From: an uncultured Fretibacterium sp.
Lineage (GTDB): Bacteria > Synergistota > Synergistia > Synergistales > Aminobacteriaceae
Length of the DNA stretch: 64,000 nucleotides
Direction: 5' to 3'
Assembly: GCA_947168585.1 (NCBI GenBank)
Contig: CAMVMK010000006.1
Location: 15,984 to 79,983, forward strand
Shown here one piece after another: positions 57,128 to 60,876 of the stretch (positions are counted from its first letter, which is position 1; each line of letters starts with the position of its first letter). The position numbers were made by a program, and so were the translations under genes. The notes under the pieces are model-generated. The model did not search any database, had not been told where the DNA came from, and worked only from the letters and a program-made list of their open reading frames with translations.

Positions 57128-58187
57128 AAATAACGGACGCTAATTTTTGCGGATCATGACGGACTACGCGGCCTTCTTTTTCGCTCTCGAAAATTGAAAC
57201 TAACGGGGCTTCAACATAAATACAGCCCATATTTTTTATAGTTTCGCGCTGTCTGTAATCCAAAAATAACGGCGATGCTCCGTCTTTTTTATAAGCGTCA
57301 ATAATATCGTCAGGGATAGGCTCGTTATTTGCTACAACAAAATCCGGGACGCTTCCGAGTGCCACGCTGACCCATTCAAGATGCTGAAGAATATCCATTC
57401 CTTGAGTTTCGTCAGGCTGAGTCATTAAATTACAGATATAAATTTTAGGAACGGGCGACTCTTTTAATTTGTCGGCAAAATCCGGCAGCAATAAATTCGG
57501 AATTACGCTCGTAAATAAACTTCCGGGCCCTAATAAAATTACATCAGCTTCATCGACCGCGCTCAAAACTTCAGGCAAAGGGCGCGCATTCATAGGCTCA
57601 AGCCAAATTTCGTCAAGTTCATGGCCGTGTTCGGAAATATCGAGCTCGCCTTTGACATTAAGACCGCTTTTAGTTTTTCCCATTAAAGTTATGCTTTCAG
57701 TCGTAACGGGCAAAACCCGGCCTCTGATTGAAAGCAGGTGATTCATTTTCTCAACGGCTGTGCTGAAATCTCCGCTCATTTCCGTAACTGCGAGCAATAA
57801 TAAATTTCCTAAGCTGTGTCCCGCAAGTTCGCCCCTGTCAAATCTGTAATCAAGAATTTTTTTGAGTTCGTTATCGTTTTCAGCGAGAGCCGCTATACAG
57901 TTTCTGACATCGCCGGGCGGTAACATTCCCCATTCGTTTCGTATACGGCCTGAAGAGCCTCCCTCGTCTGTAACGGCGACAACAGCTGTGATATTTCGGG
58001 TAAATCCTTTAATTCCGCGCAACAAAGTTGAAAGCCCCGTGCCTCCTCCTACAGCTACGATATAAGGACCGTTAGAAAGTCTTTTTGAAATTGCTCTTTC
58101 AATTACAGGTTTGCCGGAGAAAATTTTAATCCGTCCGAACAAAAATAAAATTATTAAAGTCGTTAAGACTCCTAATACAAAATTCAT
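57099..58187 (-). CDS. yvcK: YvcK/CofD-family gluconeogenesis factor
   Basis: VAVGGGTGLSTLLRGIK, VTDEGGSSGR and GPGSLFTSVIPNLL motifs. Confidence 0.85.
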   Translation of the reverse strand: MNFVLGVLTTLIILFLFGRIKIFSGKPVIERAISKRLSNGPYIVAVGGGTGLSTLLRGIKGFTRNITAVVAVTDEGGSSGRIRNEWGMLPPGDVRNCIAALAENDNELKKILDYRFDRGELAGHSLGNLLLLAVTEMSGDFSTAVEKMNHLLSIRGRVLPVTTESITLMGKTKSGLNVKGELDISEHGHELDEIWLEPMNARPLPEVLSAVDEADVILLGPGSLFTSVIPNLLLPDFADKLKESPVPKIYICNLMTQPDETQGMDILQHLEWVSVALGSVPDFVVANNEPIPDDIIDAYKKDGASPLFLDYRQRETIKNMGCIYVEAPLVSIFESEKEGRVVRHDPQKLASVIFRLVRRLDE

Positions 58188-59059
58188 TATTGATGACCGT
58201 GCCCCTTGTCTCTATGAATTACGCAGACACCGCTGTAAATTTTAGAGTAAATTTCTCCGAGCCATTCAGCCATAGCAACGCTCCTATGACGGCCTCCCGT
58301 ACAGCCTACGGAAATATGAAGCTGACTTCTTACATTATTAAGAAACTGAGGGATAAAGAAATCAAGAAAATTTTTCGTAAGTTCGAGGCATTTATGAGTT
58401 TCAGGAAATTTTAATAAAAATTCTTTCACTGGCTCGTCCTGTCCCGTTAATTCTTTTAATTCGTCAACGTAAAAAGGATTGGGCAGGCAGCGGACATCCA
58501 TTATAAAACTGCTGTCTTGAGGCACTCCGTATTTATAGCCGAAAGAGCTGATTAAAATCGAAATTCCTCCATCGTCGTTTTGATTGAAAAATTCTTTAAC
58601 GAGCCTTTCTCTATGCTGATGAAGATCCATTAATGAAGTATCTATAATAATATCAGCACGGTCTAAGACAGGAGCCAATAACTCGCGTTCCGTCAAAATT
58701 CCTTCGAGAGTTGAACGTCCATGACTTAAGGGGTGAACGCGCCTCGTTCTTTCGTAGCGTCTTAATAATTCTTCGTCCGAAGCCGTCAAAAATAAAACTT
58801 TCACAACTCCGCCCGGCCAAGCCTTTGAAGTTTCGTCAATGACTTTCACGAAATTTTTGCTGACGTTGCGAATATCAACAGTAGCTACAACTCCGCGCTG
58901 TTTAGAAGCCTCCGGACGTTCGGATATAAGTTTGAAAAGCTGCGGTAAAAGTGCAGGCGGAAGATTATCTACAGTAATGAAGCCGAAATCTTCAAGAACT
59001 TTTAACGTCATTGTCTTTCCTGCTCCGCTCATTCCCGTAACGATGATAAATTGCTTCAT
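58187..59059 (-). CDS. rapZ: RNase adapter protein RapZ (YvcJ)
   Basis: P-loop VTGMSGAGKT and C-terminal GCTGGRHRSV motif. TAATG junction with yvcK. Confidence 0.85.
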   Translation of the reverse strand: MKQFIIVTGMSGAGKTMTLKVLEDFGFITVDNLPPALLPQLFKLISERPEASKQRGVVATVDIRNVSKNFVKVIDETSKAWPGGVVKVLFLTASDEELLRRYERTRRVHPLSHGRSTLEGILTERELLAPVLDRADIIIDTSLMDLHQHRERLVKEFFNQNDDGGISILISSFGYKYGVPQDSSFIMDVRCLPNPFYVDELKELTGQDEPVKEFLLKFPETHKCLELTKNFLDFFIPQFLNNVRSQLHISVGCTGGRHRSVAMAEWLGEIYSKIYSGVCVIHRDKGHGHQ

Positions 59060-59152
59060 AGAACTAAATTTTTAACTCCTCTTTCAAATTTTAGCCGCCG
59101 CGATTATAACACGATTAAGGGTGAGGGGTGAGGAGTGAGGAATGTTTTTTCA

Positions 59153-59161
59153 TGATACAAT
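59153..59161 (+). promoter_or_regulatory. extended -10 promoter element (TGATACAAT) for the small-ORF transcript
   Basis: TGn plus TACAAT. The -35 region is poor (GAGTGA, inside a heptad repeat). Confidence 0.5.
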
Positions 59162-59242
59162 ACTTTTAGACGAGGTATCCCGTTCAGTTTGAGCGGGAAT
59201 GCTTTGGGGATTCCCTCTCAGCCTGAATAAGGAAGGAGGTGA

Positions 59243-59365
59243 ATGGTGATGATGAAACTTCTTGACTTCATAATAAAATTGTCGCATTACGTTGCCCTGG
59301 CAGGCGCGTACGCGACAGTAATAGAAATGTTGTTACAGTTAATTCTTTATTTACTTTCTCACTAA
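59243..59365 (+). CDS. unlisted small hydrophobic peptide ORF, candidate type I toxin
   Basis: MVMMKLLDFIIKLSHYVALAGAYATVIEMLLQLILYLLSH. AAGGAGGTGA Shine-Dalgarno sequence. The spacing favours ATG 59249 (38 aa). One TM-length hydrophobic stretch. Confidence 0.45.
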   Translation: MVMMKLLDFIIKLSHYVALAGAYATVIEMLLQLILYLLSH

Positions 59366-59441
59366 AGGCATAAGCCCGATGTGATTACCCCCACTTCGGC
59401 AACTTGTGCCGTAAACGTTTGCTCTTCCTCGTCGGAGCAAT
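59266..59441 (-). ncRNA. predicted cis-antisense RNA to the small ORF (candidate antitoxin RNA)
   Basis: Minus-strand extended -10 TGATATAAT (59448-59456). Extended GC-rich hairpin (59280-59317) followed by AAUUUUAUUAU on the minus strand as terminator. Ends are approximate. Confidence 0.3.
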
Positions 59442-59450
59442 GTTTTTATT
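59419..59450 (+). terminator. intrinsic terminator of the small-ORF transcript
   Basis: UUGCUC-UUCCUCGUCG-GAGCAA followed by UGUUUUUAUU. Confidence 0.65.
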
Positions 59451-59483
59451 ATATCACGTAAATAAGGAATGTTTTTCATAAGC

Positions 59484-59492
59484 TGATATAAT
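59484..59492 (+). promoter_or_regulatory. extended -10 promoter (TGATATAAT) for the DUF3798/ABC operon
   Basis: Perfect TGnTATAAT about 50 nt upstream of the TTG start at 59542, which is preceded by AAAGGAGGA. Confidence 0.55.
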
Positions 59493-59541
59493 AAAATGCG
59501 ATTTCAATTCATATTTTAATTTTTCAAAGGAGGATTTTATT

Positions 59542-60876
59542 TTGAAATTCAAAACCGCATTTTTAGCTATGCTTGTGTTGGCTTTGTTCGCAGGTTCAGC
59601 ATTTGCCGCAGGACTTCCTACAACTGACGAACTTAAAGGCGCACTCAAAGACGCTGTAAAGGACGCAGTTAAAGAGGGCGTGAAAGAAGCTGTAGCCGAA
59701 GCTACGAAGAAAGAAGCAGACTTCCACATCGGTATCGTTACCGGAACAGTCTCGCAGAGTGAAGACGATCTTCGCGGAGCTGAGTTAATGATTAAAATGT
59801 ACGGCGACACAGCTAACGGCGGAATGATCACCCACATCACTTACCCGGATAATTTCCCGTCTGAGCAGGAAACTACAATCAGCCAAATTTTGGGGCTCGC
59901 TGACGATCCTAAAATGAAAGTTATCGTTGTAAATCAGGCCGTCCCGGGAACTGCTGAAGCATTCAGAAGAGTACGCGAAAGACGCAGCGATATTATTTTG
60001 CTTGCGGGCGAACCTCACGAAGACCCCGGCGTAATTTCCGAAGCCGCTGACATTGCTACACATACCGACCATATCGGACGCGGTTATACTATTCCGCTCG
60101 GTGCTAAGAAAATGGGCGCAAAAACTTTCGTTCATATTTCTTTCCCGCGCCACATGAGTTACGAAACACTCGGACTTAGACGCGCTATCATGGAAGAAGC
60201 CTGCAAAGATTTAGGGCTTAAATTCGTCTTCGAGACCGCTCCCGACCCTACGAGCGATGTAGGAATGGCCGGTGCTCAGCAGTATATTCTTGAGAATGTT
60301 CCCGCGTGGATTGAAAAATACGGCAAAGATGCTGCTTTCTTCTGCACAAATGACGGCGAAACAGAACCTTTATTAAAGCAGATCGCTGCTCTTGGCGGCT
60401 ATTTTGTTGAGGCTGACTTGCCCTCGCCTTTAATGGGTTATCCCGGAGCTTTAGGAATTGACCTCTCGAAAGAACAGGGTGACTGGCCTGCAATCTTAAA
60501 GAAAGTTGAAGACGCTGTTGTAAAAGCAGGCGGCGGCAACCGTATGGGAACATGGGCTTATTCATGGGGCTACACAACTACGGCGGCTCTTGCTGAATTC
60601 GGAAAACGCGCAGTCGAAAACGGAGCATTAGAAAACAAAGCTAAATATATAGGCTCTGCAAGGGCTCTTAAAGACATGAGAGCGGCTTATGATGAGTTCT
60701 GCCCGGGCGCAAAATGGGGAGCAAGTTACTTCATCGAGGCTTCAACAGGCGTTAAGAACGGACATTTTATTTTGCTTCGTCAAGATACTTACGTCTTAGG
60801 CGGCGACTATCTCGGACTTGCTGACGTTGAAATCCCTGAAAAATATTTCAAAATCCGCATGACACCCGCAAAATAG
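59542..60876 (+). CDS. DUF3798-family substrate-binding protein of an ABC importer
   Basis: Signal peptide, then FHIGIVTGTVSQSEDDLRGAELMIKMYG...ITYPDNFPSEQETTISQILGLADDPKMKVIVVNQAVPGT, which matches the DUF3798 family as I remember it. ABC genes follow. Confidence 0.75.
   Translation: MKFKTAFLAMLVLALFAGSAFAAGLPTTDELKGALKDAVKDAVKEGVKEAVAEATKKEADFHIGIVTGTVSQSEDDLRGAELMIKMYGDTANGGMITHITYPDNFPSEQETTISQILGLADDPKMKVIVVNQAVPGTAEAFRRVRERRSDIILLAGEPHEDPGVISEAADIATHTDHIGRGYTIPLGAKKMGAKTFVHISFPRHMSYETLGLRRAIMEEACKDLGLKFVFETAPDPTSDVGMAGAQQYILENVPAWIEKYGKDAAFFCTNDGETEPLLKQIAALGGYFVEADLPSPLMGYPGALGIDLSKEQGDWPAILKKVEDAVVKAGGGNRMGTWAYSWGYTTTAALAEFGKRAVENGALENKAKYIGSARALKDMRAAYDEFCPGAKWGASYFIEASTGVKNGHFILLRQDTYVLGGDYLGLADVEIPEKYFKIRMTPAK

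Follow-up and report, generated by a model that had tools for sequence, protein, structure and literature searches.

The 482-bp intergenic gap between rapZ (minus strand, 58187-59059) and a DUF3798 gene (plus strand, 59542-60876) in a 64,000-nt stretch of an uncultured Fretibacterium sp. genome (contig CAMVMK010000006.1; the whole stretch is called the window here, and positions are counted from its first letter) probably houses a self-contained module that resembles toxin-antitoxin (TA) systems of type I, which would be the founding example of an undescribed Synergistaceae family. We hold this interpretation with moderate confidence. The module is predicted to comprise a messenger RNA (mRNA) of ~280 nt, which carries a small open reading frame (ORF) for a hydrophobic peptide, and an antisense RNA of ~170 nt that would run back over the 3' untranslated region (UTR) and most of the ORF. 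From the sequence, we infer that both transcripts are made and that the peptide is toxic. An original prediction, drawn up by a model from the letters of the window, had proposed a TA-like layout of this 3'-overlapping type, and the layout is supported by comparative evidence for each structural claim, obtained from 17 aligned distinct copies of the unit; all copy counts below refer to this set unless stated otherwise. The features of the window copy are as follows (SD, Shine-Dalgarno sequence).

59153..59161, plus strand: sense promoter, extended -10 element TGATACAAT, read from the sequence; predicted transcription start ~59168
59168..59447, plus strand: whole predicted toxin mRNA unit, ~280 nt, from the nhmmer profile of the unit
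59169..59175, plus strand: 5'-terminal motif GACGAGG, which pairs with terminator loop 59427-59433
59171..59206, plus strand: leader hairpin P1, including the UCCCG/CGGGA helix, from per-sequence folds
59210..59244, plus strand: leader hairpin P2, a pairing of the anti-SD, CCCUCU at 59213-59218, with the SD, GGAGG at 59235-59239
59249..59365, plus strand: ORF of 38 amino acids, MMKLLDFIIKLSHYVALAGAYATVIEMLLQLILYLLSH, with alternative start 59252 and stop codon TAA at 59363-59365, from the ORF list, homologues and coding signature
59270..59279, minus strand: predicted antisense terminator tail, an A-rich tract ATAATAAAAT on the plus strand that is the U-tract AUUUUAUUAU on the minus strand
59276..59321, no single strand: in-ORF hairpin with GC-rich core 59280-59317, on the minus strand the predicted antisense terminator stem
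59367..59410, plus strand: 3'-UTR hairpin H3, which begins immediately past the stop codon and is lacking only from the copy of locus L084
59413..59445, plus strand: terminator hairpin H4, with its core stem at 59419-59440, a T run behind it and CCUCGUC in its loop at 59427-59433
59448..59456, minus strand: antisense promoter, extended -10 element TGATATAAT, with its TATAAT hexamer at 59448-59453
59271..59441, minus strand: predicted cis-antisense RNA of ~170 nt, deduced from promoter, hairpin and U-tract

All features named by the original prediction were recovered where it had placed them, among them the extended -10 element TGATACAAT at 59153-59161, the GC-rich hairpin at 59280-59317 within the ORF, the opposite-strand extended -10 element TGATATAAT at 59448-59456, and a sense terminator at 59419-59450, which a terminator scan resolved into a terminator-like hairpin at 59419-59440 and a T run. 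None of the features that the prediction listed arose by chance.

The small gene and its predicted messenger RNA

On comparative grounds, the small ORF is a real gene. Its frame is the only one that is open in all 17 copies, the other sense and antisense frames being interrupted by stops in most of them, and the entropy of the alignment columns tracks the position within the codon (0.87, 0.49 and 1.06 bits). The pooled ratio of non-synonymous to synonymous change (pN/pS) is 0.52 in the ORF frame versus 0.67 and 1.35 in the remaining sense frames. Between the window copy and that of locus L083, which are 77% identical, a core of 17 codons holds five synonymous and no non-synonymous changes, and one indel between copies is exactly 9 nt long. 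Across the family the ORF measures 30-43 codons and encodes hydrophobic or amphipathic peptides with the consensus MKWLDxIIKILHIVAVxGTYAAVFExxLTxIRAxLSxLGF. AlphaFold2, supplied with the family alignment, models the peptide as one continuous helix (residues 2-39, mean predicted local distance difference test score 92.7), and its best 19-residue Kyte-Doolittle value of 1.9 lies in the transmembrane range. The locus therefore offers what is expected of a type I toxin gene, namely a small (<~60 amino acids), hydrophobic and by prediction membrane-targeted peptide whose ORF has its own ribosome-binding site, GGAGG, 9-12 nt upstream. The original prediction had let this ORF run from 59243 or 59249 to 59365; the ORF stands, whereas a start at 59243 would lie just 3 nt after the SD and is set aside. 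The start codon is likely the ATG at 59249 or 59252, and homologues align on the latter.

The promoter assigned to this gene is conserved in place, with TGnTAnnnT at an equal distance from the ORF in 15 of the 17 listed copies; the exceptions are L102, with TGGCAGAAT, and L099, with TGGTTGAAT. As a consensus, this sense promoter reads TGnTAnAAT. At L082, where the unit stands in another gene context, homology to the window starts exactly at the sense promoter.

Downstream of the promoter, the leader appears to be organized into two hairpins, the second of which would conceal the ribosome-binding site. A 5' hairpin (P1) is predicted at the equivalent place in all 17 leaders, with differing sequences, and the SD core is buried in P2 in each of them (probability of being unpaired 0.00-0.24 in local folds), the anti-SD reading CCUCY. 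The SD is likewise paired in 17/17 full-length minimum-energy folds, and the anti-SD:SD pairs are recovered by RNAalifold. The original prediction had described three mutually exclusive helices, UCCCG (59178-82) with CGGGA (59194-98), GGGAAU (59195-200) with AUUCCC (59210-15), and CCUCU (59214-18) with GGAGG (59235-39). All three can be read at these coordinates, and the first and third fall within the conserved P1 and P2, whereas the middle one, for which no covariation test was made, stays without support. In most copies this middle alternative could form, owing to a likeness between the SD region and the 3' arm of P1. We infer that the three helices might act together as a switch.

The most striking conserved element would join the two ends of the predicted mRNA. 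Its first seven bases, GRCRAGG, are complementary to the CCUYGYC carried in the H4 loop of 16 of the 17 copies, and the resulting 7-bp helix can form in 16/16 copies that have the 3' hairpin. The helix falls into three sequence classes (GACGAGG/CCUCGUC, GGCGAGG/CCUCGCC and GGCAAGG/CCUUGCC), is 100% paired, and shows compensatory change at two positions (GC:11/AU:6 and GC:15/AU:2). Since the GACGAGG and GGCGAGG classes each occur in both peptide subfamilies, the class switch must have occurred more than once. Minimum-energy folding of the window copy and of the L083 copy also yields this helix. Neither this pairing nor H3, the hairpin directly after the stop codon, had been noticed in the original prediction. 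H3 shows changes on both sides in 6 of its 11 pairs, and wobble pairs favor the plus strand in both H3 (22 vs 8) and H4 (28 vs 5). In the pair of units at L085 (2838-2860 and 3190-3215), CCUCGUC is placed not in the loop but in the terminator stem (CUCGU-CUA-ACGAG), as its 5' arm, so that pairing with the mRNA's 5' end would there compete with terminator formation.

Thus, a translationally inert primary transcript is indicated, at the level of prediction and conservation, by both the paired SD (17/17) and the 5'-3' helix. The plus strand from 59165 to 59455 folds at -97.5 kcal/mol (z = -4.6), a value reached by none of 200 shuffles, and two homologues fold at z = -3.6 and -5.4; the z score of the minus strand is only about -2. 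MAFFT alignments with RNAalifold gave weak consensus folds of the leader and 3' UTR because loop lengths vary between subfamilies, and per-sequence folds together with a hand-specified structure (5'-3' helix, in-ORF hairpin, H3 and H4) were used instead. In the 17-copy alignment, 82.2% of cells are paired in this structure, versus 37-47% with the partners slid, and 21 pairs are changed on both sides, versus 8-12 with the partners slid. Its covariation score is 0.302, compared with 0.195 ± 0.012 for shuffles, none of 500 of which reaches 0.302. Among the structures that covary are the 5'-3' helix and the in-ORF hairpin.

The predicted antisense RNA

The proposed antisense RNA would start from the minus-strand promoter and end at the in-ORF hairpin. 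The TATAAT hexamer of the promoter is exact in 17/17 copies, at 51-107 nt after the stop codon and within surrounding sequence that is variable and sometimes G+C-rich; its plus-strand form ATTATA has a background rate of 0.84 per kb. No perfect TATAAT occurs among the sense -10 elements of the copies. In type I systems, the antitoxin promoter is usually the stronger one.

At the other end, 16 of the 17 copies fold the in-ORF hairpin on the plus as well as the minus strand, with changes on both sides in 8 of 18 pairs and 78-79% of cells paired, versus 25-46% in slid controls. It is also retained in three units with a diverged peptide core, for example MDWLILITKMLRALSALAAALADLIRAMKE and MMKGIIAIIIKLLQAITSLIAAITELIRTLKS. 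Directly after this hairpin, the minus strand reads UUUUAUUAU. The two Ile codons (7-8) that precede the hairpin on the plus strand are ATA in 28/28 cases, the share of ATA among Ile codons being 38% in the rest of these ORFs and 25% in the genes of the window. Together, hairpin and U-tract are predicted to be the intrinsic terminator of the antisense RNA. The hairpin lacks the plus-strand wobble bias of H3 and H4 (15 GU vs 21 AC), which fits a role in a minus-strand RNA. The predicted RNA would be complementary to the 3' UTR and to ORF codons ~8-38, and its fold has a 5' region with GACGAGG and a 3' terminator hairpin. The 3'-overlapping layout is defined here solely by the predicted promoter and terminator positions (minus-strand -10 element at 59448-59456, end at ~59271, ORF at 59249-59365).

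The antisense promoter is also part of a perfect 13-nt inverted repeat, TTTTATTATATCA / TGATATAATAAAA, at 59444-59456 and 59484-59496. The second arm coincides with the DUF3798 operon's promoter-like site on the plus strand, which precedes the start codon TTG at 59542 by 46 nt, so that the antisense promoter and this site are one 13-mer placed back to back, 27 nt apart.

Distribution of the unit and its surroundings

By sequence, the peptide lies outside the known toxin families, in line with the original prediction, which could place it in none of them. The window peptide had no match in Pfam or NCBIfam at E <= 10 and 13 family members gave only chance-level matches, PADLOC returned no match, and PHROGs returned nothing better than E >= 0.03. 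Through these searches the peptide was assigned to none of the described toxin families, among them TxpA/BsrG/BsrE/YonT, Fst, Hok, Ldr, TisB, Ibs, ShoB, Zor, DinQ and AapA. At the RNA level, a search of either strand of the gap against Rfam (E <= 10) gave a best E of 0.33, to unrelated eukaryotic families, and four homologous loci (E <= 1) gave chance matches only; RatA, SR4, Sok, IstR, Sib, riboswitches and 6S RNA were among the families that this comparison covered and that did not match. There is no tRNA or tmRNA in the gap. The unit was rejected as a 6S RNA, a signal recognition particle RNA, a riboswitch or a DUF3798 operon leader, given that it carries a terminator of its own and is found ahead of unrelated genes.

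Homologues were found. The 40-amino-acid translation retrieved near-identical and 85%-identical proteins without names, a hidden Markov model (HMM) search of 1.84 billion proteins gave 13 matches at E <= 0.001, the best 11 of which were taken as family members, and a profile search of a 5.8-billion set gave 44 clusters, so that the HMM searches with the peptide define a family of ~44 clusters. None of the family proteins has a functional name or a Pfam domain, and their sole source label is 'hypothetical protein [Synergistaceae bacterium]'. At the DNA level, the ~280-nt unit is found in at least 20 distinct copies on Synergistaceae metagenome contigs; an nhmmer profile of the unit matched at 58 places in 38 fetched carrier loci and at one place in the window, and a scan of metagenome contigs with peptide patterns added one locus, L084. 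The same profile had zero matches in 78 rapZ loci from reference genomes, and blastn with the 482-bp gap as query found no match at rapZ in 17 reference genomes of related Synergistaceae, whose RapZ is 75-93% identical. By its RapZ, the window groups with genomes of rumen Synergistaceae and with Fretibacterium-like ones. In those 17 genomes synteny breaks, DUF3798 not being upstream of rapZ, and the absence therefore shows little beyond patchiness.

The copies occupy at least five gene contexts, of which four can be listed with their loci.

Window, L079-L081: gap between rapZ and the DUF3798 gene
L082: after birA-bioY, 95% identical
L085-L090, L099-L102, L111: divergent from secA
L097, L112-L115: after two HflK/C-like Band_7 genes, convergent with an SDF transporter gene

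Two subfamilies thus hold conserved chromosomal positions, one divergent from secA and the other after the Band_7 pair. Tandem arrays of two to three units are common (L083, L085-L096 and L103-L105). Within three of these loci, units at L103 282-575, L104 21-292 and L105 1052-1316 keep the full RNA scaffold, from the promoter through the minus-strand TATAAT, and encode different, shorter amphipathic peptides of 30-37 amino acids, so that the RNA frame outlasts the peptide. Two copies look like pseudogenes, and the probable decayed copies are those at L091/L092 2243-2521 (a 1-nt insertion relative to L093), L105 716-985 (a premature stop) and L102 2770-2850 (an 80-nt remnant), each of which adjoins an intact copy.

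As for mobility, tblastn had zero matches in 72,556 plasmids and 50,697 phage records, and viral contigs gave none either. The unit was not associated with a plasmid, prophage or other mobile element, and its neighbors are housekeeping genes. In the window, a perfect 12-nt direct repeat, AGGAATGTTTTT, flanks the element at 59138-59149 and 59465-59476, with (T)CAT after each copy. The repeat was not found around six single-copy relatives, and a target-site duplication was accordingly rejected as a general feature, the repeat being present at the window copy and not at the six others. It may testify to a recent insertion or else to the DUF3798 promoter region having been duplicated locally. A G-rich tract at 59120-59144, which separates the start of rapZ from the promoter of the element, contains three GTGAGG-like repeats (GGTGAGGGGTGAGGAGTGAGGAATG), and part of this tract is complementary to the rapZ SD region, as one arm of the inverted repeat I3 (59068-59081 / 59130-59143, 79%).

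Mechanism, rival explanations and relation to known systems

If the locus is a type I TA-like module, it may operate as follows. The extended -10 promoter would give rise to the ~280-nt mRNA, whose full-length form would be inert, with the SD held within P2 and the 5' end locked to the terminator loop. From the minus-strand promoter, transcription would yield the ~170-nt antisense RNA, spanning the 3' UTR together with most of the ORF. Because transcription would start at the reverse complement of H4, the antisense RNA would begin with a stem-loop showing GRCGAGG. This 5' stem-loop (GACGAGG in the window) would make first contact with the CCUCGUC loop of the mRNA terminator, for which the mRNA's own 5' end would compete, and pairing would then zip along 170 nt, with the resulting duplex leading to mRNA decay or to a block of translation. 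Should the antisense RNA be lost, or the mRNA be processed so that the SD opens, the peptide would be synthesized, insert into the membrane and arrest growth. Support for this interpretation comes from the tandem arrays and from the predicted inert, 5'-3' locked primary transcript, both of which are typical of type I systems (PMC6733600).

Several observations weigh against it. A pN/pS of 0.52 cannot be called low; the divergence has reached saturation, the coding sequence is under overlapping RNA constraints, and an equal ratio is found in one reverse frame, though that frame contains stops. Codon 33 (59345-59347) is CTT (Leu) in the window copy and CGT (Arg) in L079-L082, which are 95-99% identical; the position is Arg or Lys in most of the family, and the Leu could be an attenuating change in the window copy. 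The in-ORF hairpin pairs equally well on either strand (0.78 vs 0.79) and could serve the mRNA. On the antisense side, the TG extension of the -10 element is canonically placed in only about two thirds of the copies, no -35 element is evident, and the fold of the antisense RNA just modestly beats shuffles (z = -2.0). Finally, the several copies at conserved chromosomal positions, beside secA and after the Band_7 pair, would also fit a housekeeping small membrane protein.

It is this last point that brings in the possibility of a gene for a non-toxic small membrane protein, for instance an accessory or regulator of a membrane machine, with a structured mRNA and cis-antisense control. Such a gene would be consistent with one subfamily remaining divergent from secA and another after two Band_7 genes, and with the lack of copies in the plasmids, phages and viral contigs searched and of any match to a defence-system model. 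We nevertheless regard it as unlikely, as it sits poorly with tandem arrays of two or three units whose peptides diverge rapidly on a fixed RNA scaffold, with pseudogenised copies, with near-identical copies in unrelated contexts, and with a unit that is missing from the rapZ region of 17 related genomes and has so elaborately locked an mRNA. Such features characterize type I toxins more often than they do small proteins with housekeeping roles. Because copies adjoin secA and HflK/C-like Band_7 genes, the peptide might also be a small membrane protein that is no classical toxin and acts in protein export or membrane quality control, gated by a new RNA logic, an idea that we consider quite unlikely. 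Under such a logic, the mRNA 5' end and the antisense 5' stem-loop, which carry the same heptamer, would be rivals for one site in the terminator loop, and the antisense RNA would displace the 5'-3' lock rather than simply form a duplex.

A different objection concerns the antisense RNA itself, in that a real small-protein gene might lack one altogether, with ATTATA being the tail of the sense terminator and the in-ORF hairpin acting on the mRNA, in its stability or in ribosome pausing. ATTATA does lie within the T-rich region after the terminator, and the equal pairing of the in-ORF hairpin on the plus strand, the missing -35 element and the antisense z score of -2.0 all agree with this explanation. 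However, the hexamer is exact in 17/17 copies despite its varying distance from the hairpin and varying neighboring bases, including G+C-rich copies without a T run, and it is the -10 consensus of the opposite strand, usually with a TG extension. The synonymous fixation of ATA-ATA-AAA upstream of the in-ORF hairpin has no obvious need on the plus strand and makes an exact U-tract on the minus strand, and the plus-strand wobble bias is seen in the 3'-UTR hairpins and not in this one. These observations make a gene without an antisense RNA distinctly improbable. The very strong, covarying RNA structure, with hairpins kept even in units whose peptide core has changed, could further be taken to mean that the unit is a purely non-coding structured RNA, either a small RNA or a cis-regulatory leader, in which the ORF is incidental. 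Yet all copies other than two probable pseudogenes retain the ORF, the SD and their spacing, a single frame is open in all copies, with three-base periodicity and an in-frame 9-nt indel, and the divergent units still encode amphipathic helices of 30-32 residues. The unit also has its own promoter and terminator and is placed before unrelated genes, which rules it out as a DUF3798 operon leader, and it has no Rfam match. We therefore consider a purely non-coding role highly improbable.

Taken as a type I TA-like module, the locus resembles most closely the systems bsrG/SR4, txpA/RatA, bsrE/SR5 and yonT/SR6 of Bacillus subtilis, in which convergent RNAs overlap at their 3' ends and along part of the ORF (PMC8594479) and which also encode a small hydrophobic peptide. 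Antisense RNAs that overlap in this way and cover part of the ORF are described for TxpA, BsrG, BsrE, YonT and SprG (PMC8594479). In bsrG/SR4, the two RNAs first meet through a loop-loop contact that involves a terminator loop, and extended sequestration of the SD is documented (PMC3834814); the predicted module shares the sequestered SD in the toxin mRNA, which is partial in bsrG, and putatively the terminator loop as the first-contact site (PMC3834814). Unlike the Bacillus systems, it has a host in Synergistota rather than Bacillota, shows no sequence similarity to them in peptide or RNA, and places the antisense terminator inside the ORF near codon 8, so that the overlap would extend over ~80% of the ORF. 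To our knowledge, a covarying pairing between the 5' end and the terminator loop has not been described for those Bacillus systems.

Characteristic of type I systems is a primary transcript that SD occlusion or a long-distance 5'-3' interaction keeps from being translated (PMC6733600). The module shares with aapA/IsoA of Helicobacter pylori and hok/Sok of enterobacterial plasmids a structured, inert primary transcript with a 5'-3' interaction and anti-SD hairpins (PMC6733600), as well as multiple chromosomal copies. In aapA/IsoA and hok/Sok, however, the long-distance interaction involves the SD or translation-control region, whereas the GRCRAGG:CCUYGYC helix excludes the SD and targets a hairpin loop, in a pseudoknot-like manner. 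Their antisense RNAs overlap the 5' part of the mRNA, in contrast to the 3' part predicted here, and there is no sequence similarity. TisB, DinQ and ZorO-type peptides likewise consist of a short amphipathic or hydrophobic single helix in which a few charged residues are interspersed, a likeness of composition without detectable homology, and hydropathy and helical moment were computed to be similar to those of TisB. The antitoxin RNAs of these three are divergent, upstream and without overlap with the mRNA (PMC8594479), unlike the predicted layout here. In its working, the module would appear to unite the 3'-overlapping type I layout of the Bacillus class with a 5'-3' lock of the kind known from hok and aapA. 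What may be new lies in the detail, namely a lock on the terminator loop that spares the SD and an antisense terminator embedded in toxin codons.

The curated database T1TAdb comprised 24 families at publication, from Gram-positive and Gram-negative model groups (PMC8594479), and our full-text literature search found no type I TA system in Synergistetes. The class-level mechanism is known already, and the locus would add to it a family found from sequence alone, with an RNA anatomy that comparison has resolved unusually well, comprising both promoters, the pairing of the 5' end with the terminator loop, SD occlusion and the codon-embedded antisense terminator. Experimenters gain precise predictions of transcript ends, compensatory mutants and a peptide to express, and annotators gain a profile for ~280-nt units that are now left as empty intergenic sequence in the genomes of rumen and gut Synergistaceae.

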